64,000 nucleotides of DNA from an uncultured Clostridia bacterium (GCA_934122085.1 CAKOVS010000003.1:17734-81733), one strand, 5' to 3'. Numbered from the stretch's first letter, positions 41,098 through 63,974 are shown. The notes: generated from the sequence alone by a model not told the origin. Made by a program: numbers and translations.

Positions 41098-41109
41098 TTT
41101 AGTATAATA

Positions 41110-41189: not shown

Positions 41190-42526
41190 TCAGCTTTTTC
41201 TAAATATTAAAGTAGTTTCTGTCTGAATTGAATAAACAGGTTTGTTATTTTTTAAACGTGAAATTTTAGATGCAATTCTTTTTGAAGGAATATTCCTATC
41301 AAAATCATAAATTCGTTTTAATTTTAGTGTAGATAATAATTCTGACAAAATTAAATCAAATCGAACTACTTCTCCATTTACTCTCCTATTTCCTATGGTA
41401 AAAATAGCATATTTATCTTTTTTTAGAACTCTTGATAATTCAACACAAGAATTATAAAAATCTATATAAAAACTAGCTACTTTTCTAGCTTTATTTTTTT
41501 CTCCTGCCTTAACTAACGCATCAAATGTTGATGATAATGTTTTAGATTTTTTTAATATATTTGAATTGTATATTACATCTATAGAATAATTTGTTCCTCC
41601 AAGACTTTCTTTGTCAATTTCTGTTAATGTTTTTAGTATTGAATTATCCATATTGCTTTTTATATCATTAATATCAATCCAACGTAAAGGTAAAATAGAA
41701 AATTGTCCGTAAGTCACAGTTGTATGATTATCTCCATACGGAGGTGATGTTACAATCAAATCAACTGAGCAATCTCTAAACTTTCGCTTATCACTCATAA
41801 CTTTAATTGTATCGCCAAGATAAACTCGAGTTTTATTCTTTATATTAAAAGCTCTATATAAATTATCAAAACTATTAATGTCTTTTTCTAATTGTTTACT
41901 GAAATTTTTTATACAATCATACTGGAAACTCTCAATAATATTTTGTTTTTTTATGTGTAATTTAAAAGTCGATTTTTGAGAATTATTAGCTAGTCTTACA
42001 ATTTCTGCAAAAGCAAGCCAAAAAACTCTTCTATATAAAATATCATTTTCTTGCATAATACAATATCTGATTCTACTTAGTTGATGAATTATGTCATCAT
42101 TAAACCATTTATTAATTCCATCAAATTTAAAATCTTTAACATTTCTTGTATTATTAATTAGATTTAACAATTTATCTGATTTAACTCTTAGAAGAGAAAT
42201 AGAAATCTTAGTTGTCCTAACTAAAGTCATTAAGTATGCTAAAGGATTTATGTCGATACCAATTGTATCTAAATTTCTACAAAGTCCCTCTATTAATATA
42301 GTTCCTGACCCCATATATGGATCAAAAATATTTTTTATGCTAGAATCATTTTGCAGTACAATATTTATAAGTTCTGCTTGCATATCTGGTACCATTTTAG
42401 CTGGGTAAGAGTGTGCATAGTAAATTGAGTCTTTAGAATTTAAATTTTTAAAGTCCCAATAGGTTTCTTCTTCTTGCTTTTTTTTCTTAATATAATTTAT
42501 TATATTTTTATCAGCTAAATTCATAA
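41190..42526 (-). CDS. Orphan DNA methyltransferase (amino-MTase, N6-adenine/N4-cytosine)
   Basis: Motif I DPYMGSGTILIEG and motif IV VTSPPYGDNHTT; no cognate REase adjacent; start MNLADKN after GGAGG. Confidence 0.75.
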
Positions 42527-42645
42527 CATACCTCCTCTGTTTATAATAATACAATAAAAAATAAAAAATGTAAATTAATTTCATAAATTTGTAAAAAAAA
42601 TATATACATGATATAATAAGACAAATAATAAAAATGGAGGAAGTT

Positions 42646-45036
42646 ATGGATAAAACAAAATTATTAAACTTATCTATTTCTACAAGAATTATTTCTCAAT
42701 TAGGAGAACAACTTATATCAGACGAATTAGTGGCACTTATGGAATTAATTAAAAATGCATATGATGCGGATGCAACTAAAGTTACAATAAAGGTTGATAC
42801 AAAAGCTGAAACATCACACGGTATTGGAATGATAAAGATAGAAGATAACGGAAATGGAATGACACCATCTATTATTGAAAATAGTTTTTTAAGAATATCT
42901 ACAGGATTTAAGGAAGAATATAAAATTTCACCTTACTTTAAAAGACTAGTTCTTGGAAAAAAAGGTTTAGGAAGATTAGCCTTTAATAGATTAGGAAAAT
43001 ATATAAATGTATATACTACTCCTAGAGTAGACAGAATCAGTGATGAGTTAGTAGGCAATTTAGAGGGATTTAACGAGTTCAAACTTTTTGTTGATTGGGA
43101 GAGTTTATATGTAGATCAAGATTTTAATAAAATACAGGCAACCTTAGAAAGGCATATTAATCCAGAACCAACTTATGGAACGAAAATACAAATTTTAGGA
43201 ATTAAAAATACAAATTTCTGGAAGTTGGATAAAACTCAAAGGCAAAGATTAAAAAATGAAATATTTGGAATGATAAATCCTTTTACCAAGAACAAGGAAA
43301 GTAGATTCGAAATATATTTATATATTGATGGTGAGAAGTTTACCACAGAAGAACTAGATGAAGATTTAATTAGAAAAATAAGTGATGTTAGCGCTAACTT
43401 TAATCTAAATTCAAATTGGATATTATCTTTAGATATAAATAGAAAAGAAAAATATATTAATAATAGAATTGTAAGTACTAAAAAGAATAGAGAAAATGCA
43501 TCAACTAAATTAGTTTTACAGGAAAAAAATATTGATCCTAAAATATATAATATCCATTATGAAATTGACTTAAAAAACTCAAAAGAAATAAGAAGCATAC
43601 TTCCAAAAGTTGGAGATATTACATTTAGTACCAAAAATAATGAATTATGTTTTCCAGGAATTTTAAGTGGGGCTATTTATGCTACTGACTTAGGAAATAA
43701 AAAAGAAATTATAAAAAATCTAAATGCTGATAATATTAAAACAAATAGTGATTTTGATAATTTGTGGGAGCAAGCAAATGGAATATTTGTATTTAGAAAT
43801 GAATTTAGAATACTACCATATGGAAAAAATGATTGGTTAGATTTTACAAAAATGAGTCAAAGATTAAAAAGTAATATTTATAAAGAGCATACTATAGCTG
43901 GCTATATTAATTTAGATGGTGAAACTAGTGAAAACTTAGAAGAACAAACTAATAGGCAAGGATTTATTGAAGATGAATATGGAAACAACTTCTTTAAAAT
44001 TATTAAAGATATAATTGCTGTTACTTTGGTTAATGAAGACATTAAATTAAGAGATGGATTTGACTTAAAAACAAAAGAGGAAAAAGGATTTTTATACTCT
44101 AAAAATAATATGATAAAGTATAAAATGGAAATTTCGCAAGAGAAACAAAAAGAAAATAAGAAGGAAGAATTAAAAATATCAATCAATAATTTAAAGGCTA
44201 ATACAAGTAATATTGCTGAAATAGAAAATATATCACATATAACTGATGAGTTCTTTAAATTAGATTCAAAGGTGGAAAAAAAGAATGAACAAGAAAGGGA
44301 AATTTTACAAAGGCAAATAGATGAAATAAAAGAAATTGCCCCAATGGTTGGTCAAGCAATTATAATCGAGTCAATGACTCATGAATTAAATAGAATAGAA
44401 GGAAATATTAAGCAATATTCAAAAAATAGTTTAGATATTGCTTATGAGTTGGATGATACTTTTAATGGTAAAAATAAGTTAATTAATAATCAACATTCTA
44501 TTATAGATGAGACTGTATTTATGAGGGCACAATTAAATCATTTAGAGCCTACATACAGAAGTCAAAAAAATACTGTGGAAAATATAGATATCAAAAAACT
44601 TTTAGAGGAATCTTATAAAACTGATGGTCCTATGGCAATAAAAGCAAAAAATAGCAATATTGATGTACAAATATCAGGAAAAAATTTTACTATAAAAGCA
44701 AATAGAGGATATATTATTACTATATTTGATAATTTATTTTTAAATTCATTACATTGGATTAATTATGAGGAAGTTAATAAAAAAGAAATATTAATACACA
44801 TAGATGAAAAAGGTTATATTTATTTTTGGGATACAGGAAATGGAATTCATCCAGATATAGAAGATTCTTTATTTAATCCTTTTACTACAATGAAGAAAAA
44901 TGGAAGAGGTTTAGGTTTATATATAGTAACTGAATTACTAAGTCAAATGAATTCAACGATTGAACTAGATGAAGATAGAAAAAACGGAAGATTATACAAA
45001 TTTAAGATTAATTTAAGTAATTTATTGGAGGATTAG
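42646..45036 (+). CDS. Cytoplasmic fusion protein: N-terminal GHKL (HATPase_c_3, MORC/MutL-like) ATPase + C-terminal histidine kinase core (HisKA + HATPase_c)
   Basis: N-terminus LMELIKNAYDADATKV...IEDNGNGM...GKKGLGRLAF (Bergerat fold); C-terminus H-box MTHELNRIEGNI, N-box FDNLFLNSLHW, G1 DTGNGI, G2 GRGLGLYI; no TM segments; GGAGG RBS. Confidence 0.6.
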   Translation: MDKTKLLNLSISTRIISQLGEQLISDELVALMELIKNAYDADATKVTIKVDTKAETSHGIGMIKIEDNGNGMTPSIIENSFLRISTGFKEEYKISPYFKRLVLGKKGLGRLAFNRLGKYINVYTTPRVDRISDELVGNLEGFNEFKLFVDWESLYVDQDFNKIQATLERHINPEPTYGTKIQILGIKNTNFWKLDKTQRQRLKNEIFGMINPFTKNKESRFEIYLYIDGEKFTTEELDEDLIRKISDVSANFNLNSNWILSLDINRKEKYINNRIVSTKKNRENASTKLVLQEKNIDPKIYNIHYEIDLKNSKEIRSILPKVGDITFSTKNNELCFPGILSGAIYATDLGNKKEIIKNLNADNIKTNSDFDNLWEQANGIFVFRNEFRILPYGKNDWLDFTKMSQRLKSNIYKEHTIAGYINLDGETSENLEEQTNRQGFIEDEYGNNFFKIIKDIIAVTLVNEDIKLRDGFDLKTKEEKGFLYSKNNMIKYKMEISQEKQKENKKEELKISINNLKANTSNIAEIENISHITDEFFKLDSKVEKKNEQEREILQRQIDEIKEIAPMVGQAIIIESMTHELNRIEGNIKQYSKNSLDIAYELDDTFNGKNKLINNQHSIIDETVFMRAQLNHLEPTYRSQKNTVENIDIKKLLEESYKTDGPMAIKAKNSNIDVQISGKNFTIKANRGYIITIFDNLFLNSLHWINYEEVNKKEILIHIDEKGYIYFWDTGNGIHPDIEDSLFNPFTTMKKNGRGLGLYIVTELLSQMNSTIELDEDRKNGRLYKFKINLSNLLED

Positions 45037-46869
45037 ATGGAAAACGAAAATATAGAACAAATTAAACAAAAATTAGCATTTATGAATATTAATAAAATAA
45101 TCTCTATAGATAATGAATGGTCTCAAAATAATAATATAGACTTAAGCAAAGATATAATAGATTTTATCGAAGAACTACATCCAAAAAATGAGAAAGAACT
45201 CTTACGTAAAATATCTAATAAAGGCTACTTAACTTTAAAAAATGCATATGATGATAATGATGAAGAATTAATAAAACTGATAAATTCAAAAAATGATATG
45301 CAAAATCAATTACCACCCCATTTAGAAAAATTAGATAAAATTTTAGAAGCATTACAATTAAAAGGAATAGCTGTAGATAAAATAGATAAATACAAACCAT
45401 CTATTTTCCAAAAGTATAATACGGAAAATTGTCTTTTTATTCTTGATAAGGAAATGGATGAAGTTAGTAATAAAGATATTATTAAAGAAAGTATTCCAAA
45501 TATAATAGAAGAATCGGATAAAAATGGTGTAAATCATTTAATAATTGTATATTCAAGTAATATAAGCGATGAATATGTAAATAACTCAAAAAAATTAGCC
45601 TATGTACAACAAAGAATAACATCTCCTGGAAAGAGTAATTTTTATATTTATAAAATGTTTGCAATAGAAAAAAATCTAGATACAAAATTGGATCAAGAGC
45701 TAAATTCAAAAATATCAGATTGTATTTATGGTGATGCTTTATATCACTATATGGTATTAGAAAAGAGCAAAACAGATAAAATTTATGATTCAATTTGTGA
45801 AATAGATAATGAGGAAATATCAAGAATATCAGAGGAGAATTTTATAGAAGGAAATAATATTACTGATAGTATTAATACTATCAAAAAGGCTATAACAAAA
45901 ATGCATGAAAATGAACAATTTGATAAAGAAAAAAATATACTAGAAAAATTTAATTTTTATCAAAAAGATAAAATCAAAAATTTCGTTTCACATAATAGTA
46001 CATTAACAACAAATAGTCAATATAGAAAATATCGTGAATCTCAGGATATAGAATTTGTAGAAAATATATTGCAAAGCAATATATCAATTTGGGAAAATAT
46101 AGATTATTCTGTTAACAAATTTTATAAAGACATATCTACAGGAGATATATTTAAAACAAAATTACTAAAAGAGAATAAAGAACAATATCTACTAATTATA
46201 GAAAATGCGTGCGATTGTATACTTCGAAGTCAAAAAAATATAAATGATATATCAAGAAAAAATAAAACTGGAAGTATAAAGGTATTATTATTAGAAAAAT
46301 ATGATATAATAGAATCAGAGAAAAAACAAATAGCTAAACAATTTGGCAATGGAGAAATTATTTTTCCTATAAAAGAACATAAAACTTATTATTTAAAGAA
46401 CACTGGAAAAGTTTTTTCAATTCCAGAATTTTTATTAGATTTATGTACCCTAAACGAAAAAGGTAAATGTTTAACAAATTATAGTAAGGAAATAATACAA
46501 AAATATAAAAATTATTATTTTGAAAAGTATATGGACATGCCACAAACAATTGAAAAGATAGAAAATTTCAAAAAATATTTACTAATAGATAATTCCCATA
46601 TAAAGAAAGGATTAGAATTGCAAGAAGAATCAGAAGAAAATATTATAAAACCATTTCAAATAGAGAAAGATAAAGATGGAAATCCATGTATGGAACGAAT
46701 AGGAAGATTAGACTATAATATTACTTTAAGAGTATGTCAGAAAAACTACTATGAAATAGAAAAACAAATATTTAATACATTTGAGAGTCAAGGAATTCTT
46801 AATAAATTGAAAGGACAACAAAAAACTACAATTGCTTCTATAGAAAAAATATTTGGAATAAAAAAGTGA
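45037..46869 (+). CDS. 610-aa hypothetical protein, likely translationally coupled to the upstream GHKL-kinase gene
   Basis: Start codon overlaps the upstream stop (GATTAGATGG); no recognisable motifs; Cys pair CDC...C. Confidence 0.4.
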   Translation: MENENIEQIKQKLAFMNINKIISIDNEWSQNNNIDLSKDIIDFIEELHPKNEKELLRKISNKGYLTLKNAYDDNDEELIKLINSKNDMQNQLPPHLEKLDKILEALQLKGIAVDKIDKYKPSIFQKYNTENCLFILDKEMDEVSNKDIIKESIPNIIEESDKNGVNHLIIVYSSNISDEYVNNSKKLAYVQQRITSPGKSNFYIYKMFAIEKNLDTKLDQELNSKISDCIYGDALYHYMVLEKSKTDKIYDSICEIDNEEISRISEENFIEGNNITDSINTIKKAITKMHENEQFDKEKNILEKFNFYQKDKIKNFVSHNSTLTTNSQYRKYRESQDIEFVENILQSNISIWENIDYSVNKFYKDISTGDIFKTKLLKENKEQYLLIIENACDCILRSQKNINDISRKNKTGSIKVLLLEKYDIIESEKKQIAKQFGNGEIIFPIKEHKTYYLKNTGKVFSIPEFLLDLCTLNEKGKCLTNYSKEIIQKYKNYYFEKYMDMPQTIEKIENFKKYLLIDNSHIKKGLELQEESEENIIKPFQIEKDKDGNPCMERIGRLDYNITLRVCQKNYYEIEKQIFNTFESQGILNKLKGQQKTTIASIEKIFGIKK

Positions 46870-46954
46870 TTTTTACTTGTTTTTTTAAGCGAACTAATAT
46901 GAAGTGAACCCAAATTATTAGACAAAAAAGTTTAATAAGGAGGGTTCATTTTCT

Positions 46955-47467
46955 ATGTCAAAATATTCAAATGAGTTAAAATTAAAAGTTGCAAAATATT
47001 GTGTAGAACAATATCATGGATATTCAGATGCAGCAAAATATTTTAATATTCCAAGCGAGACTACAGTATATCAATGGGTTAGGAGATATAAAGAAAAAGG
47101 AGTAGCAGGATTATTAAAAAACAAAAAAACTTCATATAGTGGAGAATTTAAACAAGATGTGGTAGAATATATGCATAAAAACCATTTATCAGCAACAGAA
47201 ACAGCTATAAAATTTAATTTAGCCAATCATACTATAGTATTAAAATGGGAACGTATATATTATGAGGAAGGGCCACAAGCATTGTTTAGAGAACGACGTG
47301 GTAGAAATAAAAATATGAGTTCTAAACCAAGAAAAAAGAAATTATCTAAAGAAAATAAAGAAGATTTAATAGAAGAAGTTCAAAGATTAAGAATGGAAAA
47401 TGCATACTTAAAAAAATTGCAAGCCTTAATTCAGGAAAGGACAAAGCCAAAACAAGAGAAAAAGTAA
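46955..47467 (+). CDS. IS3-family transposase OrfA (HTH + leucine zipper)
   Basis: HTH N-terminus, LRMENAYLKKLQALIQE zipper. Confidence 0.8.
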   Translation: MSKYSNELKLKVAKYCVEQYHGYSDAAKYFNIPSETTVYQWVRRYKEKGVAGLLKNKKTSYSGEFKQDVVEYMHKNHLSATETAIKFNLANHTIVLKWERIYYEEGPQALFRERRGRNKNMSSKPRKKKLSKENKEDLIEEVQRLRMENAYLKKLQALIQERTKPKQEKK

Positions 47468-47508
47468 TAGTAATAGATGAATTAAGGCATGAATTTAAAT
47501 TAGAGACT

Positions 47509-48312
47509 TTGTTAAAGTTTGCAGAAGTAAAAAGGAGTACTTTTTATTATCAATTAAATAGAATGCAAGTACCAGATAAATACAAAGAAATAAAAGAACA
47601 AATAACATCTATATATCACGAAAATAAAGGAAGATATGGTTATAGAAGAATTACATTAGAACTTCATAATAGAGGATTTATAATTAACCACAAAACAGTT
47701 ATAAGATTAATGAGAGATTTAGGATTACAATGTTTTATTAGAGTTCAAAAATATAAATCTTATAAAGGTGAAATAGGAAAAATATGTGATAATCTTCTAA
47801 ATAGAGAATTTGAAGCTGAAGAACCAAATCAAAAATGGGTTACAGATGTAACAGAATTTAAAGTACATAACGAAAAACTGTATTTATCACCTATAGTAGA
47901 TTTATTTAATGGAGAAGTAATTAGTTTTAACTTATCAAGACATCCGGTATTCGCACAAGTAGTAGATATGTTAGAAAAAGCTTTTAATAAAATACCAGAT
48001 AATACAAATTTGATATTACATTCAGATCAAGGATGGCAGTATCAGATGAAGCAATATCAACACTTATTAAAAGAAAAAGGCATTAGGCAAAGTATGTCAA
48101 GAAAAGGTAATTGTTTAGATAATTCATTAGCAGAGAATTTCTTTGGTTTATTAAAATCAGAATTATTTTATATGAAAGATTATAAAACGATAGAAGAATT
48201 AGAAAAAGATATAATAGAATATATAGATTATTATAATAATAAAAGGATAAAAGGCAAACTAAAAGGAATGAGCCCTGTTCAATACAGAACTCACTCCTTA
48301 GAAGTTGCTTAG
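47509..48312 (+). CDS. IS3-family transposase OrfB (DDE integrase core)
   Basis: ...VSRSTFYY-like start, DDE residues (VTDVTEF ... HSDQGWQY ... NSLAENFF); open -1 frame extends back to the A7 slip site. Confidence 0.8.
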   Translation: MLKFAEVKRSTFYYQLNRMQVPDKYKEIKEQITSIYHENKGRYGYRRITLELHNRGFIINHKTVIRLMRDLGLQCFIRVQKYKSYKGEIGKICDNLLNREFEAEEPNQKWVTDVTEFKVHNEKLYLSPIVDLFNGEVISFNLSRHPVFAQVVDMLEKAFNKIPDNTNLILHSDQGWQYQMKQYQHLLKEKGIRQSMSRKGNCLDNSLAENFFGLLKSELFYMKDYKTIEELEKDIIEYIDYYNNKRIKGKLKGMSPVQYRTHSLEVA

Positions 48313-48398
48313 TACCTAATCAAAAAATGTCCAATTTTTTGGGTTCAGTACATAACTCGCCTTTTTATATAAGAAATAACTACTGTAATTTTTCACAT

Positions 48399-50162
48399 CT
48401 AATTATTTTCTAAATCAAATATTAGTTTTTTTAAATCAATAATATAGATTGGCGTTGCTTGATTTGAATAATTTAAAATATAATTAGTTTCTGGTAATAT
48501 CATTTCATTTTCTTTGAACAAATTAGATTTATTAATTGTTGTTAAAGATATATCTGCTTTATTCATTTCTTGAATATCTGTATCATTCACGTCCCAACAA
48601 ACAATGTAATCTATTTCATTTGCATATTTTTCGTTGTTTTCAAAATCTCTAATTATATTTCTTAGATGTGATTTAAATTCTATGCATATAAAATGATTAT
48701 TATATTCTGCATAAAGATCATACTTTTCTCTATATCCTGATATTATTGGTTTAACCTTATCTATTTTTCCCATTCCTACAAGTTCATAAAAAATTGCTGC
48801 TACACTTGCCTCTTGCTCAGATGGTAATTTTTTAAAATTAATTATTGAATTATTTAATGCTGGCAAACTATCAATTTTCATTTTTATTTCATCTCTATCC
48901 CAAATTGGATTATTGTCTATATCTGGTTCTCCTGCAACATACTTTGAAATGTATTTTGTATAATCACTAAATATTTCTTTTGCATATTTTTTATAAATAT
49001 TTTTGATACTTCCATTTATTGATTTTCTTCCTATATCAAATTTTAGCATATCATCTTCAAAAATCATAAATAAATTTGGCCAATATCCAGTTTTACCTGT
49101 AAGTGGAGGCTCGATTATAATTCCTGTTGGCATTCCTTTTACTGATGTGTATATCCCTGATTGATGTGTTGTGAAAAATTTATCTTGTAAAATGTCTTCA
49201 TTGTCTATATCATTTTCATCTAATAATCCATCTTTGCACGAAATCTTTTTCCATAATGTTCTTTGTGGTACATAACATGTCCAAAATTTTATTGTTCTCA
49301 CATTGTTATGTTTATATTCACCCATTTTATATATAATTTTATTTTTTAATTTATTTCTTTTTTCCTGATCTGATGATGTTGGATTTTCTTTTAGCCATTT
49401 TTTAAAAACTTCTAAATCAAACAAATCCTTTTTTTCCAAACTTTCTGTAGGTATCCAATATTTATATTCCAATTTTTCTTCCTTGGTATTTTCAGCTAAA
49501 TCAGTATATATCAATGTAACATCAATATTTGAATTATTATCAAATAAGTTCAAAACATTTCCAATAGCAGTTTTAGTCCTTATTACATACTTTATAGAAT
49601 TAAAATCTAATTCAAATAATTGCTGATTTTCAATCCCTTCAACACATATATCTGTTCCTATGAATCCTTCTTTATTTTCTGAAGATAAATTTAAGCAAAA
49701 ATCTTCATCACTATCACTATTCTTCCATGTTTTTGCTCCAGGTATTTTTACTACAAATTTTTCAGTAGATTTATCAGTTGTTGTCTTCATAATAAAATTG
49801 TCACTCGAAAACAAAACAAATTTTAGTCCTACTCCTTTTTCTCCAATTGTTTCTTTATCATCTTCTTTATCAGTAGAAAATGGTGTTAATAAAACTGGTA
49901 TTTTTTCCTTTTCTATCCCTATTCCCGTATCAATAACTTGTATTGATCTTTTATGAGCATTAATAATTATTTTTATGCTCCCCTTTCTTTCTTCCGTTTT
50001 ATTAATTGCATCTACACTATTTTGAACCAATTCAGCAATTATATCCCAAAAGTTATTATAGCTATCTTCTATCCCCTTTATGCTTTTCCTTATAATAAAG
50101 TTATTAGGCATTAAAAATGGTATTTTTTCAGTATCCATAATATTTACTATTTCCCCTTTCAA
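48399..50162 (-). CDS. MORC-like GHKL ATPase with C-terminal restriction-endonuclease-fold (DUF3883-like) domain
   Basis: ELVQNSVDAI ... IDTGIGI ... GEKGVGLKF Bergerat motifs; C-terminal D...(ICIEFK) PD-(D/E)xK-like pattern. Confidence 0.6.
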   Translation of the reverse strand: MKGEIVNIMDTEKIPFLMPNNFIIRKSIKGIEDSYNNFWDIIAELVQNSVDAINKTEERKGSIKIIINAHKRSIQVIDTGIGIEKEKIPVLLTPFSTDKEDDKETIGEKGVGLKFVLFSSDNFIMKTTTDKSTEKFVVKIPGAKTWKNSDSDEDFCLNLSSENKEGFIGTDICVEGIENQQLFELDFNSIKYVIRTKTAIGNVLNLFDNNSNIDVTLIYTDLAENTKEEKLEYKYWIPTESLEKKDLFDLEVFKKWLKENPTSSDQEKRNKLKNKIIYKMGEYKHNNVRTIKFWTCYVPQRTLWKKISCKDGLLDENDIDNEDILQDKFFTTHQSGIYTSVKGMPTGIIIEPPLTGKTGYWPNLFMIFEDDMLKFDIGRKSINGSIKNIYKKYAKEIFSDYTKYISKYVAGEPDIDNNPIWDRDEIKMKIDSLPALNNSIINFKKLPSEQEASVAAIFYELVGMGKIDKVKPIISGYREKYDLYAEYNNHFICIEFKSHLRNIIRDFENNEKYANEIDYIVCWDVNDTDIQEMNKADISLTTINKSNLFKENEMILPETNYILNYSNQATPIYIIDLKKLIFDLENN

Positions 50163-50173
50163 TTTCGTTTATT

Positions 50174-51568: not shown

Positions 51569-51643
51569 CTTTTTTCCCCCGTTAATATTGTATCATACAT
51601 TATATAAAAAATAAATAAAAGAGGAAAATGTTTCCCCTTTTAT

Positions 51644-53107: not shown

Positions 53108-53110
53108 AAA

Positions 53111-54130: not shown

Positions 54131-54132
54131 CT

Positions 54133-55086: not shown

Positions 55087-55087
55087 A

Positions 55088-55315: not shown

Positions 55316-55483
55316 TCTATATTTAATATCCTAAAGTTTTTATTTATTTTCTTATATTTTTTATTTTAATACTAAATTATTATTTTGTAAAGGCTTATTT
55401 TTATTTAAGATATAAAATATACATACGTAATAAAGGGATTGGGATTTCATCCCATTGAATAGAATTTGAGCAAAGCAGAAATT

Positions 55484-55571
55484 TCGGTCTCCCAATTTCA
55501 GTGCTTGCTGGGACAAGAAATCATTTTTTCGGTCTCCCAAATTCATTGCTTGCTAGGACAAAAAATTGACT
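55484..55571. repeat. Two tandem imperfect ~44-bp direct repeats, each containing a near-palindrome (tcccaa...ttggga-like)
   Basis: tttcggtctcccaatttcagtgcttgctgggacaagaaatca / ttttcggtctcccaaattcattgcttgctaggacaaaaaattga; lies between the replication module and the R-M block. Confidence 0.5.
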
Positions 55572-55637
55572 ATATTGATTTTTTTATGCATCATTTTAGG
55601 TACATTAATTATTCCTTTTAATGTTCTAATAGGACAG

Positions 55638-55676
55638 AAAAAAGTACCTGGATTAGAAAAATCCAGGTACTTTTTA
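55638..55676. terminator. Bidirectional perfect hairpin terminator
   Basis: aaaaagtacctggatt-agaaaa-aatccaggtacttttt. Confidence 0.55.
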
Positions 55677-55678
55677 TT

Positions 55679-55999
55679 TTATAATTCGATTTCTTTTAGC
55701 TTATGATCTCTTCTAGAAAAGTTTAATTGTTTTATTTTATTGTTCATCATTTTGTTGGTTATAATTTTACATGGCACCTCTTTAAGTCCTATAATTTTTG
55801 CAATAGTAAATGTATTTAAACAATTATATAGCATATAATATTCTCCTATTTTAGTAACAAGAAATGGTTTTTTAATTCCATCCCTTTTTATTCTTAGTGA
55901 CCAATTTTCATAAAAATCACTATCTTTTGGTTTAAATTCTTCGTCTCCTATTTTAATTTTTTCTACAGGTATATTTTTTGTTTCTATTCCTTTTATCAT
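55679..55999 (-). CDS. ParB/Srx-like N-terminal domain protein
   Basis: IPVEKIKIGDE...IKKPFLVTKIGEYYMLYNC pattern. Confidence 0.4.
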   Translation of the reverse strand: MIKGIETKNIPVEKIKIGDEEFKPKDSDFYENWSLRIKRDGIKKPFLVTKIGEYYMLYNCLNTFTIAKIIGLKEVPCKIITNKMMNNKIKQLNFSRRDHKLKEIEL

Positions 56000-56090
56000 A
56001 AATTATTCCTCTCTTTCTATTTACTTTTTTTATTTTTTATATTAAAATATATTTAACTTGATGGGGTTAGTATTTTTAAGTTTGCCGACT

Positions 56091-56906
56091 TTATACTAAC
56101 TCTTTTTTCATGTTTTTTAGTTTTATTCCAAAGCACATCTGATACAATTTTGATATTATTGCATCTACTAAATCTGGATCTTTACTATAACTAAATCTTT
56201 CAATTAATCCCTGTTTATTAAACCTTGTTGTTATGATTATTGGTAACCCATTTTCATATCTATTCTGAATTATTGTGTATAATTTTTCTAATGCCCAGTT
56301 ACTTATTTTCTCTGTTCCTAAATCATCAATTATAAGCATATCTGCATTTGAATAAATCTCTATTAATTCATTTTCTGATTTAGTATTGTTCTCATAAGTT
56401 TCTCTTATTCTGTCCAATAGGTTAGTTAATCTCTCCATTAAAACTATTTTATCATTCTCTATTAATTTGTTTGCAATAGCTGCTGCTAAATGTGTTTTAC
56501 CTACATCTGACTTGCCCATTATTATCAGACTATCAGGTTTCATTGTATCTTTATTTTTATTGATATAATCATTTACAACATCTAACACATACTTATTACT
56601 TGAATCAAAATAAAAGTTTTCTAGGTTCATTTCTTGTAATTTTCTGCCTATATAATTTTGTTTGTAGATTGTATTTATAATATTTCTAATTCTATTTCTT
56701 TTTTGCTGTTCGCATTCTTTATTGTCTATTTCTTTCCAATACTCTTTAGATTTACTACAATCACATCTTTCATATTCAATACTATCTTCAGAAATATTTA
56801 CATATAGATAATCAATTCCTATTGGTCGTAATTCTTTACCACAAAATTCACACTTTTTGAATCTATTGTGTATAACTTCATCATAATTTGTACTTTCTGA
56901 ATCCAT
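56091..56906 (-). CDS. DnaC/IstB-like replicative helicase loader ATPase with N-terminal zinc ribbon
   Basis: CEFCGKEL...CDCSKS; Walker A GKSDVGKTHLAAAIA; Walker B LIIDDLG. Confidence 0.75.
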   Translation of the reverse strand: MDSESTNYDEVIHNRFKKCEFCGKELRPIGIDYLYVNISEDSIEYERCDCSKSKEYWKEIDNKECEQQKRNRIRNIINTIYKQNYIGRKLQEMNLENFYFDSSNKYVLDVVNDYINKNKDTMKPDSLIIMGKSDVGKTHLAAAIANKLIENDKIVLMERLTNLLDRIRETYENNTKSENELIEIYSNADMLIIDDLGTEKISNWALEKLYTIIQNRYENGLPIIITTRFNKQGLIERFSYSKDPDLVDAIISKLYQMCFGIKLKNMKKELV

Positions 56907-57405
56907 TGTTTTCCTCCTCTCCTATATTTTCTTCTTTTCTTATTTCTTTTGTTATCTTTTCTTCTTTTTTCTCTTCTGTTGCGTTACGTGACGTTACTGT
57001 AACGTTACTTTTTTCACTTTCATTTTTCAATTTTTCACGATATTTTCTTTGTCTTTCACTATTCTTTGATAGATAATCTTCATGTCTATCAAGGCTTTGA
57101 TACTTGTTCCAGTTTTTTATAACAAATACATTCTCTTCCTTTTTAAGCATTTCTAATTCTAGAAGTTTTTCCAATATTTTGCTCATTTTTTTCGAAGATT
57201 TTCCCATAATTTTCGAAAATTCTTTAATAGAAATAGGATTATTTCCAATTATTAATCTTCCACCATCTCCACATTCTACTGCTAATGATAATAATTGTAT
57301 CCATATTCTAAAATATGTATCTCCATCATTCAGGCTTAGAAGCAATTGGATTTTTCTATTACAGAAAATATTCTTTTCTAGTTTGAACCATTGAATATCA
57401 TACAT
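56881..57405 (-). CDS. Phage replisome organiser N-terminal domain protein (DnaD-like)
   Basis: MYDIQWFKLEKNIFCNRKIQLL matches the M.IQWFKL..NIFDDEKI start of phage replisome-organiser proteins; overlaps the dnaC-like start. Confidence 0.6.
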   Translation of the reverse strand: MYDIQWFKLEKNIFCNRKIQLLLSLNDGDTYFRIWIQLLSLAVECGDGGRLIIGNNPISIKEFSKIMGKSSKKMSKILEKLLELEMLKKEENVFVIKNWNKYQSLDRHEDYLSKNSERQRKYREKLKNESEKSNVTVTSRNATEEKKEEKITKEIRKEENIGEEENNGFRKYKL

Positions 57406-57432
57406 ATCCTCCTTTCCTCTCTTTCTATTTAA

Positions 57433-57633
57433 TTAGTAGTTAACTGATTCTTGTTCTTTAGAACTCAAATATTCATCTAATACTTGTACTCTAAACAAGA
57501 ATTTTCCACCAACTTTTGAGCCTGGTATTTCTTTTCTTCTTACTAATTGATTAATTAACCAGTAAGAAATTCCTAAATACTCTGCTGCTTCTTTCATTGT
57601 TAGTGTTGTCCTTTGTACTTTTTGTAGTTCCAT
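57433..57633 (-). CDS. Excisionase/MerR-family HTH DNA-binding protein
   Basis: LTMKEAAEYLGISYWLINQLVRRKEIPGSKVGGKFLF pattern (HTH_17). Confidence 0.55.
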   Translation of the reverse strand: MELQKVQRTTLTMKEAAEYLGISYWLINQLVRRKEIPGSKVGGKFLFRVQVLDEYLSSKEQESVNY

Positions 57634-57820
57634 ACAAATGCCTCCTTTCATTTATGTATTTGAATTGGCTAGCCATAGTTAACAAGTTTTATGAAGTTTT
57701 TCTTGTTAACTAATTGAATTTTACCACGCAATATGGTAAAATCCTACTAGATTAAGTGAATTCAGTTATCAAAACGAAACTTTTGGTTTTTTTATGATTT
57801 GTTAACAAAGGAGATTTGAT

Positions 57821-58471
57821 ATGGAAAGAAAGAATAAAATCGGTATTTCTTTTGCTTCTTCATGTTTTTCTCAAATATTCATTCATACTTCAGGAGCATA
57901 CTTAAGCAAACCTATCAGCAAAAATAATAATAAGTATTTTGCAAATTTAAGAAATGTTCCTCCTGATGAAAGATTTGGAAAATTAGTTCTAGAACTTGAG
58001 AAAGCTAATTCTGAATCAGAACGAGAAAAAATACTAAGTGAATTAAACGCAATTACTGAAATAGATAAGACAATTGAATCAAAGCCATTAACTTTTAAGG
58101 ATAATATTGAAAAATTAAAGGGTTATATTGTTTTCGAGCCAACTACTGCTGTTGAACATTATGATCTTTCTCTTTTAGATTTCATAAGTTATGATTTTGA
58201 TGTATTTAATGATTATTTATTGTTTTTTATAAATTTCTTTGATTATTTTATAGATAAATTAGATGATAAAGATATTAAGTATATTGAACTAGATACTTTA
58301 TACCCTGTAAAAGAAATAGTAGAATTAGCCCAAAAATATTATGATAAAGAAAAAGATAATTTAATATACTATCAAAATATTTTCAAAAAATGTATTAATT
58401 TTGTTTATGGTATTGATAATTCTTTTGACATGAAATATTTAACTTATAAACAAATATTTTTTTTTGTATAA
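57821..58471 (+). CDS. Hypothetical protein
   Basis: ORF track only. Confidence 0.3.
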   Translation: MERKNKIGISFASSCFSQIFIHTSGAYLSKPISKNNNKYFANLRNVPPDERFGKLVLELEKANSESEREKILSELNAITEIDKTIESKPLTFKDNIEKLKGYIVFEPTTAVEHYDLSLLDFISYDFDVFNDYLLFFINFFDYFIDKLDDKDIKYIELDTLYPVKEIVELAQKYYDKEKDNLIYYQNIFKKCINFVYGIDNSFDMKYLTYKQIFFFV

Positions 58472-59063
58472 TCAAATAAATCCAAATACTTTTTCAGAAT
58501 TTAAACAAGATTTTCATTCAACAGATTTATTAGATTATCAATATAGCAGTTTTCCTATACAAAAAGATCTTATTAAATTTTATGATGTTGATGCTTTAGT
58601 TTCTGCTATCGAAGAAGTAGATCCTACTGGAAGAAAACTTCATAGTCTTCAACAATTTGAAACTACTAATTTATTTACAAGTTTTTATATTACACTATTT
58701 AATGTAGTAGCAATAAATGATAAACTCATTAAAATATGTGGTAATTGTAAAAGATATTTTATAACACACAAAGAAACAGTAACTTATTGTGATAGAATTA
58801 TTGAAGACAAATTAACCTGTAAAGATATTGGAAATAGAGAATATCAAAAAAGGAAATTAGAAAATGACCCTACCTATGATAGATATAGAAAACTTGGAAG
58901 TAAAAAACAACTTAGACGTGATAGAAATCCAGAAATAGAAATATATAAACAAGATCTTGAACAATACAGAAAAATAGGAAAGCAAATGTATAAAGATTTT
59001 TACTCTGGTAAAATAACTCATGAAGAATTTGAGGAATGGGTAAATGAACAAGATAAAAAATAG
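58464..59063 (+). CDS. Hypothetical protein with Cys4 zinc-ribbon
   Basis: CGNCKRY...CDRI...C. Confidence 0.3.
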   Translation: MYNQINPNTFSEFKQDFHSTDLLDYQYSSFPIQKDLIKFYDVDALVSAIEEVDPTGRKLHSLQQFETTNLFTSFYITLFNVVAINDKLIKICGNCKRYFITHKETVTYCDRIIEDKLTCKDIGNREYQKRKLENDPTYDRYRKLGSKKQLRRDRNPEIEIYKQDLEQYRKIGKQMYKDFYSGKITHEEFEEWVNEQDKK

Positions 59064-59082
59064 GAGAAATTTTCTCCTATTT

Positions 59083-60399
59083 TTATTTTATTCTTACTAA
59101 TATTTCCTTGCTTTTGGCTATACACACTCCATTATTTACTACAAAGGCTTGAACCCAGTGAGTTCCCGTATATGATGTACTTTCGTGTCTACCATAGGAA
59201 TAAATATTTGATGTTTCAAATCCACCTCTTAAGCAATTATTTTCTTTTGCTTCTTCTCCAGTATTAACGACTTGCCAAAATATTTTAGTGTTACTTGAAA
59301 ATGCTGCTGCACCTACAACTGTAAAATCAATATTTACACTTTTATCTAATATACTATCTCCTTCTGGATTATAATCTATTAAATAATTATATCTATCATA
59401 GCACTTTACTTTAACATCTACTAATGAAATATTACTTCCTTCATACCAATCTGGCTTTGCTTTATAAGGTACATTAAAAAAACTATTATATTTGTCTTTT
59501 ATTGCTTCTAATAATGAATTGCTTGCCATTTGTTCCTTAGGAAATTCAGTACCAAGTATCTTTCTCCAACTTTCATTAGAACAATTATATTTTTCTAGCA
59601 TGTTTATATGATTTTCTAGTTTATTATAGAAATACTTAAAATCTTCAAACTCATAACAATCTGATAAATTATCTGTTAATATACCTGGATCTGCTATAAA
59701 TGGTTTTGTTCCATTTTCAATATAAGGTCTAAAAGTACTTACTATATTTTTCATGGTATTAAGTACAATGTCCTCATACGTATTATTACAATCATATAAA
59801 TTATCAGCAATAATTTTTTCAAGTGTTATTCCTTTCGGATATTTAATATTTTGGGGACAATTATTTTTTCTCCACCATTTAAAAATTTTTACTATTCTTA
59901 CAAATTTATCATGATTTTCTTGGTTAATTCTCGTACACCATTCTATATGACCTTTAGGATTTGTCCTTTTCCATTTTCCATCGTTCTTGTTTCCTATTTT
60001 ATACATTGAAAAAATCTTATCTTCTATCATTGGCACAACATCTATTTCTGTACCTTCCATTTCTATTCCTATTGATCTACTTTGTTTTTTTACATTATCG
60101 TATTTTTCTTTACAAACTTTGTATAATTCATCTAGTACTTCTTTTGAATCATATTGTTCTGTATAATTGGTTACTACAACAATATCAACATCTGTCTTTC
60201 CATCATATTTAGTTGGTCTAATACATGTATGCTTTGCATATGAACCAGTTAAAAATGTCTCTATTACTTTTTCTTTATATACATCATGAGATTCCAGAAA
60301 ACCTCTTAAATTTGTTTGTATACTCGAAACATATTTCTTGGTTGTTGGAGATGGTTCAATATTATGTAGAAACTCTTCAAAATCTTTTTCTTTACTCAT
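59083..60399 (-). CDS. Pol-beta-superfamily nucleotidyltransferase (SMODS/CD-NTase-like)
   Basis: GS...DVD pattern: TFLTGSYAKHTCIRPTKYDGKTDVDIVVV, then a third acidic residue (EIDVVPM); 438 aa. Confidence 0.5.
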   Translation of the reverse strand: MSKEKDFEEFLHNIEPSPTTKKYVSSIQTNLRGFLESHDVYKEKVIETFLTGSYAKHTCIRPTKYDGKTDVDIVVVTNYTEQYDSKEVLDELYKVCKEKYDNVKKQSRSIGIEMEGTEIDVVPMIEDKIFSMYKIGNKNDGKWKRTNPKGHIEWCTRINQENHDKFVRIVKIFKWWRKNNCPQNIKYPKGITLEKIIADNLYDCNNTYEDIVLNTMKNIVSTFRPYIENGTKPFIADPGILTDNLSDCYEFEDFKYFYNKLENHINMLEKYNCSNESWRKILGTEFPKEQMASNSLLEAIKDKYNSFFNVPYKAKPDWYEGSNISLVDVKVKCYDRYNYLIDYNPEGDSILDKSVNIDFTVVGAAAFSSNTKIFWQVVNTGEEAKENNCLRGGFETSNIYSYGRHESTSYTGTHWVQAFVVNNGVCIAKSKEILVRIK

Positions 60400-61147
60400 C
60401 TGTTCTAAAATCCTCCTCCGTATTAAAATTAAATGAATTTAATGCATTTGCATATTTTCTAATATCAATTGCAGCTACTGTTCCAATTTCATGTAATTCA
60501 TTATTAAGATTAAAGAATAACCCTAATATCGATTCATCTGCACTTGTTTTTTCAAATTCTATACTACCATCTTTCTTTTTTATACTAGTAAATGAATAAC
60601 CATTAATTGCACATCCCAAGTCGATATTCCTATTGTTTTTTAAATGATTAATAATTGTTTCATCATTTGCTATATCCATATTAGTAGCCAATATGATTCC
60701 TAATATATGTGTTAAATTTCTTCCTGCTGTTCTTCTTCCTGCACATGTCATACCTCTTGATGATCTTTTTAACTCTTTTACAGACTGAATTTTTTCATTA
60801 GCATATTCTATATTTCCTTTATCGATATTAGGTTTAACTTCAACAATAGCATAAATTGCTTCAGCTGGAATGAATTTTTCTCCTGTATTACTAACTAATA
60901 CAAAAGGTGAGTATAAAGCATCATAAATAATCAAATCAATTTGTTCACTTACATTTCCTTCATAGTCAATTACATATCCTTTATCCACTCCATATTTTCC
61001 TGGTAGTATTTCTTTAAGAAATTTTTTCCAACTTTCTTCAGAATTATCACCATTTCCTGTAGGATGTGGTATTGTTCCACTTTCTCCTAAAAATGCTGCT
61101 AATGTATTTTGCTTTGCAGCTAATAAATTATATAATTGATTTTTCAT
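60392..61147 (-). CDS. PD-(D/E)xK (restriction-endonuclease-fold) protein, candidate effector
   Basis: EQIDLIIYD ... AIYAIVEVK (D...E-x-K spacing about 27 aa); 251 aa; overlaps the NTase start by 8 nt. Confidence 0.4.
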   Translation of the reverse strand: MKNQLYNLLAAKQNTLAAFLGESGTIPHPTGNGDNSEESWKKFLKEILPGKYGVDKGYVIDYEGNVSEQIDLIIYDALYSPFVLVSNTGEKFIPAEAIYAIVEVKPNIDKGNIEYANEKIQSVKELKRSSRGMTCAGRRTAGRNLTHILGIILATNMDIANDETIINHLKNNRNIDLGCAINGYSFTSIKKKDGSIEFEKTSADESILGLFFNLNNELHEIGTVAAIDIRKYANALNSFNFNTEEDFRTDE

Positions 61148-61411
61148 CTTCTTTCCTCCTATAATAAAAAATAGTCTTAATTCCTTAAGACCATCTTATT
61201 CTAGTTGTTTCATTATAATATAACAGAACATATTGGTCCTCCTTTCCAGAACCAGACAAATGTTTCGTATTTACAAATGCAACAAATTGTATTATAATAT
61301 AAATGTATGTATGATCTGGGGAGATTAATATATACACTTATATTGGACCAACATTCGCTTGGTTCTTTTTTTTATTTAAGTTTGTTTTACGACTAACTCA
61401 TAAAAGTCAAT

Positions 61412-62701
61412 TTATTTTATTCCTTTTAAGAATTCATCTATTTGTTCTTTATTTGGTTGTACTATGATTTGCTCTTTTTTATATATAGTAGAGACTAAAG
61501 CATCTCCTTTTATTCTTTTTCCATCTACCTTTATGTTTGACATTTTCATAGCTTCAACATTCCCATCAATATTGTTTAATAGGTATATTGCATCTTGCTT
61601 AAATAATTTTTGATTTTCTTCATTTAAACAATCAAAAATTTCTGGTAAATTAGTAGTAAATAAAATTTGCGTTGCATTATTATCTAATTGCACAAATAAT
61701 CTTAATACTAAAAATATTAATTCTTTATGCATATTTAGCTCTATTTCATCAATTAATAAATTTCCATTTTTGTTTATTACATCTATTGCATTTAAAACCA
61801 AATTTAGGAACCTTTTTGTTCCAGTTGATAGGCTTTCTCTGGTTATACTTCCACCTGTTTTTAATTCATATATTAATTCTTCATTATCATTATCTGGTTT
61901 CATTTTAATACACTTTATTTTTGGATCAATTATTTTTACTATTGCTTCCATCAATTTTGAATTTTTTTTGTAAAATTTTATAAAGCTCATGTCTTCAATA
62001 AAATCTGGTATATCAATTCCTATAATATCAGAATTTTTAATATAATGTTTAAAAAATGTATTTATGTATTTGTATTTATATTCTAGAGATTCCTTATTTA
62101 TCATTTCTAAATCTAACATATTATCATGATATCTATTAATATAATATAATTGACATTCTGTTGTATTTTTTAAATCAAGAATATAGTCTTTTTCGTCATT
62201 GTAATTTTTTCTATATGAAAATTCTTCTTTAACGATTTTTCTATTTTTCCCATTCAATTGTAAAATGTAATTATAGTATCCCGTTAGCATTTCATCTTCT
62301 ATATACATTTCCACTTCAAGATATGTATCTTCTTCTGGCTTACTCACATTTTGAACCTCTATAACAACACTATTATTGATTTTTTCTATCATTTGGTTTA
62401 TTTGATCTTTATCATATTCCATATTTTTAATAAGATTTCTTATTTTTTTTCTTTCTTCTTTATAATCTAGAGTCATAATAGGTTCAAGCATTAAACTACC
62501 AAGTGTACCTAAAGCGTCAATAACTGTTGTTTTTCCACTTGCATTTCCTGCTAATATGCCAACAAGTTTGTTAATATAAATTCCATCATGCGTTTTATAT
62601 AAAGATATTTGTTCATCCTTTTTTCTACTTTTAGCTATAAAATCAAATTGTATCCTATTTAAAATACCTTCAAAATTTTCAATACATACTTTAGTAAACA
62701 T
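61412..62701 (-). CDS. ABC-type (AAA_21/AAA_15-like) ATPase of the kind found in abortive-infection/OLD/PARIS-type systems
   Basis: Walker A GNASGKTT, signature-like LSTGTKRFL, Walker B LLIDEIELNMH. Confidence 0.6.
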   Translation of the reverse strand: MFTKVCIENFEGILNRIQFDFIAKSRKKDEQISLYKTHDGIYINKLVGILAGNASGKTTVIDALGTLGSLMLEPIMTLDYKEERKKIRNLIKNMEYDKDQINQMIEKINNSVVIEVQNVSKPEEDTYLEVEMYIEDEMLTGYYNYILQLNGKNRKIVKEEFSYRKNYNDEKDYILDLKNTTECQLYYINRYHDNMLDLEMINKESLEYKYKYINTFFKHYIKNSDIIGIDIPDFIEDMSFIKFYKKNSKLMEAIVKIIDPKIKCIKMKPDNDNEELIYELKTGGSITRESLSTGTKRFLNLVLNAIDVINKNGNLLIDEIELNMHKELIFLVLRLFVQLDNNATQILFTTNLPEIFDCLNEENQKLFKQDAIYLLNNIDGNVEAMKMSNIKVDGKRIKGDALVSTIYKKEQIIVQPNKEQIDEFLKGIK

Positions 62702-62949
62702 TTGCTTACCTCCTGTGATGTATTATAATTTATTTTCTTGTTTTTGTCAATAGTTTATGCCTTATTTAGGCACAATTATTTATTTTTAGACATAATAATG
62801 CCTATCGTAGCTTGTTTATTCTTGTATTTATGCCTTTTTTAAGATTAACGGCTGGCTTTTGTTATCATTTTTTGTATAATTTATATTGTTAACAGATATA
62901 TTATTCTTCCTCCCACCCATAGGTATGCCTGAAAGGATGTGAAAAAGGT

Positions 62950-63974
62950 ATGTACATTGAAGGAAAATCTCTTAAATTTGAAGACTTTGTAGAAATATGG
63001 AAAAGAGATTATGGCGAAAAAGAATTAGCACCTTCAACATACAAAAGATATATTGGAATACTAGAAACTAGAATTATACCTTTCTTTAAGCATTTTCATG
63101 TTGATAAAATAAAACCAACAGATATAATGCAGTTCTACGACTTATTAAGTAAAGATACTCAAATAGTAAGAAGAAAAGACAACAATGGTAAAAAACAGGT
63201 AAACCACTTTCATCAAAAAATATTGTTGAACATCACAGACTTCTTCGTGCTATGTTACAAAAAGCAGTGTATTGGCAACTAATACTTTCAAATCCTGCAG
63301 AACGTGTTCAAGCACCTAAAACTAAAAAGCCTAAAAGAAAATACTATGATGATGAACAAAGTAAAATATTAGTTTCAAATTTAATGGATCTTTCTCAAGA
63401 ACAAATTAAATATAAAACTGCAATCATCTTAACAGTATTTACTGGAGTTAGACTTGGAGAGCTTATGGGATTAGAATGGAACGATATTAATTTCAATGAT
63501 GGAATTGTAAGCATTAATCGTTCTAGTCAGTATTTGGCAGACAAAGGTGTATTTACCAAAACACCTAAGACAGAAAGTTCTATTAGAGAAGTCGGAATAC
63601 CAGATTTCGTTGTTTCATTACTTGAAGAATATAAATCATGGTATGATGAACAAAAAGAGTTATATGGCGAATTATGGACTGATTCTAATAGGTTATTTGT
63701 ACAAGCAGATGGTAAGCCAATGCATCCTTCTACTATTAGTAAATGGTTTGTAAAATTTGTAGAACAAATAGGACTACCTGTAATTAACTTCCATGGGTTA
63801 AGGCACACAAATGCGACCTTACTCATAGCACAAAATATTGATGTTCCAATTGTAGCAGCAAGACTTGGACATGCACAGATTACAACAACGCTTAATTTTT
63901 ATGTGCATCCTATTATTGCACATAATAAAAAAGCAAGTTATGTTTTAGAAAACTTGCTACTACCAAGAAATTAG
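62950..63974 (+). pseudogene. Tyrosine recombinase/integrase interrupted by a frameshift in an A6 tract
   Basis: Two overlapping ORFs (62950..63282, 63252..63974). Adding one A at 63196-63201 gives a continuous integrase (...DNNGKKTGKPLSSKNIVEHHRLLRAMLQKAVYWQLI...); C-terminus HGLRHT...LGHAQITTTLNFYVH catalytic R/H/Y. Confidence 0.7.

Follow-up and report, generated by a model that had tools for sequence, protein, structure and literature searches.

Defence cargo on chromosomally integrated mobile elements is well documented (Botelho 2023, PMC10201445), and defence islands occur at integration hot spots (PMC10121019). In Faecalibacterium, a catalogue of ICEs (integrative and conjugative elements) as well as integrative mobilizable elements (IMEs) found 86 putative anti-phage systems of 47 classes, and the PF03432 (MOBP7-type) IMEs were rich in defence genes (PMC12084326). 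Here we analyse a 64,000-nucleotide stretch of one strand from an uncultured Clostridia bacterium (GCA_934122085.1 CAKOVS010000003.1:17734-81733), referred to below as the window. Positions 40611 to ~64279 (23.7 kb) probably form one integrated mobile element, which belongs to a family whose tyrosine integrase would target the anticodon loop of tRNA-Met(CAU). The description that fits the element best is that of a widespread, IME-like family directed at tRNA-Met and equipped with two anti-phage slots, of which the window holds a decayed member without a relaxase. A first-pass annotation of the window had proposed an integrative element of about 23 kb with anti-phage cargo, an IS3 insertion, a phage-type replication module and a frameshifted integrase; profile scans and family comparison agree with this proposal, and its gene list was borne out almost item by item by Pfam, PADLOC, PHROG and NCBIfam.

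The locus resembles the Faecalibacterium IMEs (PMC12084326) in having a tyrosine integrase, a tRNA target, a small backbone without pore genes, a PF03432 relaxase in its relatives and diverse anti-phage cargo. In contrast to them, the window copy has no relaxase and a broken integrase, the backbone carries a replisome organiser and a DnaC-like loader, one sub-lineage has a ParB-like protein with 40-nt repeats, and the hosts are uncultured low-GC Clostridia; the likeness is one of features. As in other integrated defence elements (PMC10201445, PMC10121019), defence genes are concentrated at a tRNA-linked hot spot and their content varies between strains, but here the hot spot is a 15-nt tRNA remnant, filled in 44 of 44 contigs, and two defined slots of a single backbone family hold the cargo. 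Phage-inducible chromosomal islands (PICIs) and Staphylococcus aureus pathogenicity islands (SaPIs) also have an integrase at one of their ends, regulatory genes that diverge, a replication module and genes with accessory or defence roles. Unlike these, the present element has no packaging module, uses an organiser and DnaC rather than a primase-helicase, has relaxases in its family and has no demonstrated link to a helper phage. Tn4451 and Tn4453 are clostridial mobilizable transposons, and Tn4451 uses the large serine recombinase TnpX. Many members of the present family have TnpV-like genes at their ends, as well as a Mob relaxase in relatives, in common with Tn4451 and Tn4453; in contrast to Tn4451, the family uses a tyrosine integrase and a tRNA site.

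A contig from a Hadza gut metagenome (171,681 bp; locus L004) matches the window with 0 mismatches over 10,749 nt and supplied 9,974 nt past the window end; coordinates above 64000 are extrapolated from it. Gene calls were checked by Pfam, PADLOC, PHROG and NCBIfam profile scans, and the scan for relaxase domains took open reading frames (ORFs) of at least 100 aa. The G+C content is ~25% across the whole window, with no compositional break at the candidate region. The main parts of the element, including its attachment (att) sites, are as follows.

40611-40625, plus strand: left att remnant, CCTTCGGGTTATGAG, 15 nt
40626-41097, plus strand: left arm with orf117 (ATG at 40795, ~100 aa, no family match)
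41098-55420: cargo slot 1, 14.3 kb
55421-59070: central backbone, with 40-nt repeats and genes for a ParB-like protein, a DnaC-like loader, a replisome organiser, a Xis-type helix-turn-helix (HTH) protein, unk216 and DUF6076
59071-62856: cargo slot 2, 3.8 kb
62857-63974, plus strand: integrase region including the promoter region; the tyrosine integrase pseudogene (PF14659 and PF00589) occupies 62950-63974 (62950-63282 and 63252-63974)
63975-64000: start of the integrase-proximal arm, which runs off the window
64239-64279 (extrapolated; L004 10988-11028), tRNA sense on the minus strand: right att, with the 3' half of tRNA-Met, 40 nt, at 64239-64278

The genes run in the order orf117, ParB-like, DnaC, replisome organiser, Xis-HTH, unk216/DUF6076 and integrase, with the two cargo slots among them. 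The backbone (40626-41097, 55421-59070 and 62857-64279) totals ~5.5 kb, and anti-phage cargo makes up about three quarters of the element. Slot limits were set by blastn comparison with four related loci (L003, L005, L010 and L084). The left limit of slot 1 is the breakpoint at which strain L003 leaves the window sequence (at 41077), and its right limit is the onset of homology with L010 and L005 at 55421-55433. Slot 2 was delimited against L005, L010 and L084.

The left end of the element is marked by CCTTCGGGTTATGAG, the reverse complement of the 3' strand of the tRNA-Met anticodon stem plus the anticodon loop. It matches the window only once, and shuffles expect 0.02 matches with up to two mismatches. 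Its position, 40611-40625, falls within the 40.5-41.2 kb interval in which the left boundary had been predicted. From 40626 on, the DNA behind it shares 89% identity with the stretch behind the tRNA fragment of L052; in L052 and six other loci the fragment is followed by an orf117-like gene, and such genes lie directly inside the att core in most related elements. The right att had been predicted to lie beyond the window, with a tRNA to be sought past 64000, and it was found there, at 239-279 nt outside the window. It is TGGTTGCGGGGGTAAGACTCGAACTTACGACCTTCGGGTT, 265 nt past the stop codon of the integrase, and corresponds in reverse complement to the part of the tRNA that reaches from the anticodon loop as far as the CCA end. 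This sequence ends in CCTTCGGGTTA and is followed by unrelated DNA, and both element ends share CCTTCGGGTTA as an 11-nt direct repeat. The 15-nt core and the tRNA-Met 3' half provide the attachment sites at a defined target that characterise an IME, and the integrase gene, frameshifted in the window copy, provides the site-specific recombinase at the element end.

Several general searches returned nothing further at these ends. An exact-repeat search (k>=12) between both proposed ends gave nothing meaningful, the real shared repeat being 11 nt. ARAGORN reported no tRNA in the window or in L001-L004; the tRNA piece there is half a gene and was first spotted by eye. There is no second copy of the 40-nt tRNA half in the window, and an Rfam scan at gathering thresholds gave no match. 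When the att zone was compared with the whole sequence by BLAST with short words, noise alone was returned, save for a 20-nt match resembling the CRISPR repeat. This match (extrapolated 64302-64321; L004 11051-11070) lies just past the tRNA fragment, agrees with the CRISPR repeat at 95% and shares its tail TTTAAATTAATAT; the DNA is AT-rich and the match may be due to chance.

The reconstructed 341-aa integrase has relatives at 70-89% identity in 80 genome loci, each from another species-level genome. The hosts are mostly uncultured gut Clostridia known from metagenome-assembled genomes (MAGs), such as Clostridium sp. CAG:571, CAG:567 and Candidatus Scatovivens, and the majority of the 80 relatives align over all 341 aa; most also look intact. 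The same tRNA sequence lies 215-350 nt downstream of the integrase, convergent with it, in nearly all 80 loci, and in at least 15 related loci it is part of an intact tRNA-Met(CAU) gene. In relatives without an intact tRNA, identity usually stops right after ATGAG, at the anticodon-loop position, or a few bases later, as an integrase crossover in the anticodon loop and a later insertion beyond it would leave. The integrase-proximal att of L111 consists only of a variant of the 15-nt core, CCTTAGAGTTATGAG, without the tRNA 3' half, suggesting that the minimal att is the short core. L111 (positions 1-8700, oriented from the att core) holds a complete 8.4-kb element followed by another orf117, which belongs to a tandem second element. 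L054 likewise contains a second, tandem element with att, orf117, 5.7 kb of cargo, relaxase, TnpV, DnaC, replisome organiser and Xis. These two loci show whole or tandem elements ordered att, orf117, cargo, backbone, integrase, att.

The integrase of the window copy is interrupted at ~63194, where a single nucleotide is missing from an A-run: it has GGTAAAAA-ACAGG, compared to GGTAAAAA(G/A)ACAGG or an equivalent in-frame sequence in ten relatives. Different samples yielded at least 22 contigs with the truncated 240-aa ORF, so an assembly error can be dismissed and the lesion is genuine. In the closest sister species (L010, integrase at 10001-11023), a crude in-frame translation runs to a stop at codon 265, and this copy may also be decaying.

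To follow the site across strains, we compared 44 contigs, comprising 13 with the same or a 94%-identical CYTH gene and 31 gut-metagenome contigs with the same chromosomal flank; cargo was annotated in the 13, and the 31 were checked for backbone genes only. All 44 keep the flank up to the core and then diverge at once into about a dozen arm classes. The core ends in ATGAG in most contigs and in ATAAG or ACGAG in three. Nearly all arms start with an orf117-like gene, sometimes preceded by a TnpV-like gene, and these orf117 genes are only 29-48% identical to that of the window. The differing arms and orf117 genes indicate that whole elements, not cargo alone, differ between strains. Among the 13 annotated contigs the cargo beside orf117 changes from strain to strain and includes an Avs-like STAND protein accompanied by Fic and a UvrD-like helicase, an AAA_21 ATPase alongside Mrr and an SLFN-type helicase, a restriction-modification (R-M) system with two methyltransferases (MTases), a McrBC-like system that has two C5 MTases, a type II cyclic-oligonucleotide-based anti-phage signalling system (CBASS) with SAVED together with a type I R-M system, and an OLD-type ATPase-Toprim.

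The first-pass annotation had also held the segment to be mobile rather than ancestral, had named conserved synteny without flanking repeats as the sign of an ancestral origin, and had suggested comparison with genomes lacking the element. The related genomes show no such synteny. The same integrase and backbone lie beside the same tRNA in 80 loci, and strains that share the flank diverge exactly at the core. The comparison defined the junction at the core in 44 contigs, and none of these contigs has an empty site.

These observations also bear on whether the locus is instead a fixed chromosomal defence hot spot, in which cargo is swapped by homologous recombination between the flanks and the integrase, Xis and replication genes are relics. 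Such a site would be consistent with the presence of the same element in 20 of 22 lineage contigs, with the integrase pseudogene and with the absence of an empty site from the 44 contigs. Cassette exchange within the slots would also fit the identity of the AbiLi-like protein of slot 2, which is 97-99% across species-level MAGs (compared with L010 and L084), against ~87% for the integrase protein and 85-93% for backbone DNA. We take this difference to reflect recent cargo exchange between elements. However, divergence starts exactly after the anticodon-loop core and not at variable points in the flank, whole backbones differ as described above for the arm classes and orf117, the att sequence separates tandem copies, and the integrase is intact in most relatives. 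A fixed hot spot is, on this evidence, an unlikely account of the locus.

Several points weigh against integration of the window segment as a single mobile element at tRNA-Met. Its right junction reads CGGGTTA followed by AAAATT, which ends four bases before the usual core does and has no tRNA 5' half; most relatives read CGGGTTATGAG there, and the junction of the window is thus atypical. The left remnant is only 15 nt long and the repeat between the ends only 11 nt. An intact tRNA-Met, expected further to the right, was not found within 9.7 kb, and no origin of transfer (oriT) was identified, although an oriT is not recognisable by the profile scans used. Neither an empty site nor a tRNA 5' half after the core was seen in the 13 and 31 contigs, and no circular form was found; integration is therefore deduced from junction structure and was not observed. 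The element is the same in 20 of 22 contigs of the window's lineage, and its fixation there leaves recent mobility of the window copy unsupported.

The kind of element is indicated by the genes of the central backbone, which are arranged as follows.

55482-55566: pair of direct repeats of 40 nt, TTTCGGTCTCCCAATTTCAGTGCTTGCTGGGACAAGAAAT, which agree at 90% and lie downstream of the ParB-like gene
55679-55999, minus strand: ParB-like gene, 106 aa
56091-56906, minus strand: DnaC/IstB-like loader
56881-57405, minus strand: replisome organiser (Phage_rep_org_N)
57433-57651, minus strand: Xis-type HTH (HTH_17/Tn916-Xis)
57821-59063, plus strand: unk216 and DUF6076 genes, divergent from the Xis/replication operon

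The DNA of this segment is 93% identical to L010 and L005, and its genes are present in 43-52 of the 80 related loci. None of the replication and Xis genes is shortened, and their identity to the counterparts in relatives is 87-99%; the replisome organiser and DnaC-like loader match phage-type proteins in PHROG. unk216 and DUF6076 are one fused protein in L095. A literature search found no papers on DUF6076, and its AlphaFold2 (AF2) model was poor (pLDDT 69, pTM 0.41) and was left out of the fold search. The label ParB-like, taken over from the first-pass annotation, is unsupported as it was given there: the 106-aa protein has no match in Pfam, PHROG or PADLOC, and the sole support for the label is a weak NCBIfam match to SbnI (E 7e-4). 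What the same annotation called iteron-like repeats corresponds to modest Tandem Repeats Finder hits (56928-57009 and 57166-57221, scores 42-63) within the replisome-organiser gene, and the conserved 40-nt pair comes in addition. The 40-nt repeat is kept, singly or in two copies, by 9 further loci (L005 to L076), and the repeat region folds strongly as single-stranded DNA (z -6.3). Judged from these features, the repeats could be a binding site, an origin or an oriT. A 61-aa ORF that overlaps them is probably spurious and not a gene.

In about 27 members of the family, the gene directly after DnaC is that of a MobA/VirD2 relaxase (PF03432) of 443-467 aa, often accompanied by TnpV. No packaging or conjugative-pore genes were found in the relaxase-bearing relatives examined. 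The position of the relaxases and the lack of packaging genes suggest that the family consists of integrative mobilizable elements and not of phage satellites. In the window copy and in L005, L007, L010, L013, L032, L043, L063 and L076, a ParB-like protein followed by one or two 40-nt repeats stands in place of the relaxase. The relaxase expected of an IME was not found in ORFs of at least 100 aa, and tblastn with the family relaxases was blank in the extended sequence; the window copy has either lost a relaxase or never had one. The scanned ORFs also contain no genes of a conjugative pore (type IV secretion system), as is usual for an IME, and no ICE conjugation module (VirB4, coupling protein, relaxase).

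The first-pass annotation had likened the element to a PICI, that is, to a phage satellite whose excision and replication are induced by a helper phage that then packages it. The integrase at one end, the Xis-type HTH divergent from the unk216/DUF6076 pair, the phage-type replisome organiser and loader, and the defence cargo, which is known for satellites, are all compatible with this analogy, and one relative is located in an IMG/VR viral contig. Pfam and PHROG scans, however, found no packaging or capsid-redirection genes (terS, cpm, ppi, capsid) in the window copy, and terS, capsid-redirection and other packaging genes were likewise not found in the relatives examined. The relaxases after DnaC point to conjugative mobilization, 23.7 kb exceeds the size of typical PICIs, and among 50,697 phage records no integrase is more than 41% identical to that of the element. 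We therefore abandon the analogy and consider a satellite very improbable. A decayed temperate prophage stripped of its structural genes would equally account for a phage-type integrase, Xis and replication module. It is barely plausible given that Pfam and PHROG detected no virion structural, terminase or lysis gene or fragment in the window copy, that the 80 relatives share a compact backbone without phage structural genes in the flanks examined, and that one complete relative measures only 8.4 kb. The backbone has no match among PLSDB plasmids.

For the IME-like family we propose the following scheme. The tyrosine integrase would recombine at the anticodon loop of the tRNA-Met(CAU) gene, and relatives would excise, replicate and be mobilized by the conjugation machinery of another element. 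The slots hold predicted anti-phage systems in every member with annotated cargo, and in the sub-lineage of the window copy the ParB-like protein and 40-nt repeats take the position of the relaxase. The window copy itself is probably immobile because its integrase is frameshifted, its right junction is damaged and no relaxase was found. It would now be a vertically inherited defence island with five cargo units, namely a methylation-linked trio with a GHKL/histidine kinase and a receiver-like putative effector, a two-MTase/two-HNH operon, a CBASS of type I, an AbiLi-like ATPase and an IS3 that inserted later.

Slot 1 contains three of these units, with the following features.

41190-46869: three-gene module, with the MTase on the minus strand and the other two genes on the plus strand
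41190-42584, minus strand: N6_N4 MTase
42634-45036, plus strand: GHKL800, 800 aa
45037-46869, plus strand: unk610, 610 aa, no family match
46900-48352, plus strand: IS3-family insertion sequence with rve and HTH domains (Pfam)
46955-47467 and 47509-48312, plus strand: orfA and orfB (rve) of the IS3
48399-55315, minus strand: six-gene operon
48399-50162, minus strand: GHKL587, 587 aa
50174-51568 and 51644-53107, minus strand: HNH paralogues, 34% identical
53111-54130 and 54133-55116, minus strand: D12 MTases
55088-55315, minus strand: HTH controller

The MTase had been regarded as an orphan and proves to belong to a conserved three-gene module. The order of the trio is kept even where the unk610 homologues are only 29% and 40% identical (L096 and L098). 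unk610 is rare, with only 17 relatives among 5.8 billion protein clusters, and the trio is absent from PADLOC 2.0 and NCBIfam. The N-terminus of GHKL800 has a GHKL region like that of the BbrUII/HgiDII restriction enzymes (E 2e-21, partial), and its C-terminus has a histidine-kinase module that matches HATPase_c and many histidine-kinase models. The AF2 model of unk610 (pLDDT 82.8) has an N-terminal five-stranded flavodoxin-like domain, in which the invariant residues D25, D137, S173 and K212 sit at the ends of strands b1, b3, b4 and b5. This placement corresponds to the receiver-domain pattern, and the model thus suggests a receiver-like N-terminal domain. unk610 has no match to a receiver (REC) profile, a PDB sequence search with its profile gave no match, and Foldseek returned weak receiver and TIR matches only (E 0.05-0.5). 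Hypothetically, the GHKL/histidine kinase would phosphorylate the receiver-like domain of unk610 and so switch on an effector, forming a kinase-to-receiver relay inside a methylation-linked defence system.

The IS3 sits between two convergent genes. Its terminal inverted repeats, TGAAGTGAACCC and GGGTTCAGTACA, lie at ~46900 and ~48350, and it is flanked by a probable 3-bp ATA target duplication. One contig (L002, 1-364) leaves the window sequence at the right end of the IS3 (48352), enters an HTH_19 gene and stops after 364 nt; the break is either an assembler join at another copy of the insertion sequence or a real rearrangement mediated by it. In the six-gene operon, each of the two D12 MTases corresponds to one half of PDLC03292, a model of a fused type II MTase of 722 aa, and the HNH proteins match generic HNH models only. 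By its gene content the two-MTase/two-HNH operon is predicted to be restriction-like. Relatives carry other systems in slot 1, including an MmeI/Eco57I-type R-M system with a T5orf172 helicase, RnlA/RnlB, and MazG with a PLD-ResIII-DUF3427 helicase.

Slot 2 contains the following three genes.

59083-60399, minus strand: CD-NTase (SMODS+AGS_C)
60392-61147, minus strand: NucC (DUF6602)
61412-62701, minus strand: AAA_21/AbiLi-like ATPase

The CD-NTase matches the PADLOC Cyclase model (E 2e-82) and NucC the effector model (E 2e-69), and the two overlapping genes form one operon. It is flanked by DUF6076 and the AbiLi-like ATPase, with no Cap2/Cap3 or HORMA/TRIP13 genes next to it. A CD-NTase with a single effector identifies the pair by gene content as a type I CBASS. 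As in type I systems there is a cyclase plus effector only, and the two-gene layout here joins NucC to a cyclase fused to AGS-C. Descriptions of NucC usually concern type III systems, which have HORMA/TRIP13. The ATPase matches AbiLi (E 5e-32), and the 265 nt downstream of it contain no ORF of at least 51 aa that could encode an AbiLii partner, so that the second gene of a two-gene AbiL system was not found. The combination of CBASS and AbiLi recurs in L084. Elsewhere slot 2 holds other genes, such as a STAND NTPase in L095 and a DpnII/MboI restriction endonuclease in L054.

The chromosomal surroundings of the element, from left to right, are as follows.

23863-25409: CRISPR array of a type I-B CRISPR-Cas system, left of the element, with cas genes to 33.8 kb
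Between CRISPR-Cas and the element: NUDIX genes, a bile-salt hydrolase, a histidine phosphatase and a large HTH protein
Adjoining the left side of the element: peptide deformylase and a CYTH-like gene, which ends at 40482
Right of the element, within 64405-73974 (extrapolated; L004 11154-20723): a 218-aa gene without PADLOC match, a frameshifted Cu/Zn superoxide dismutase (Sod_Cu) pseudogene and a 530-aa HNH protein with a DGQHR-like motif
Further right in L004: the apparently core genes Metallophos, NUDIX and Maf, 98% identical in L010
Beyond these in L004: TnpV, RepA_N and AbiTii genes

The CRISPR-Cas locus (23863-33807) comprises 24 repeats plus cas6 to cas2 and is itself variable between lineages: in a sister lineage with a 94%-identical CYTH gene, an HD-domain gene abuts a NUDIX-methyltransferase gene and CRISPR-Cas does not lie between them. 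The 23 spacers of the window matched none of the retrieved elements. To the right, the TnpV, RepA_N and AbiTii genes suggest another mobile-element remnant. In two other species (L038 and L076), homologues of the NUDIX genes at 34.0-35.6 kb of the window adjoin Maf to the right of the integrase, and Maf lies at 69.4 kb (extrapolated) in the window's own arrangement. From this gene order, the interval 35.7-69.4 kb may be variable as a whole relative to those genomes.

The element is otherwise of a known kind, and the element family and the trio module appear to be undescribed in the resources searched. We suggest only tentatively that the trio is an undescribed anti-phage system and that the backbone represents an undescribed replicative tRNA-Met family with two defence slots, whose members replace one another at a never-empty site. 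The exact boundaries, target site and backbone definition obtained for a family of 80 loci make its defence cargo findable by position. A single 15-nt site that holds about a dozen elements across strains constitutes a compact natural library for the discovery of defence systems, and the rare trio can be tested as a candidate for a new signalling logic in the defence against phages.

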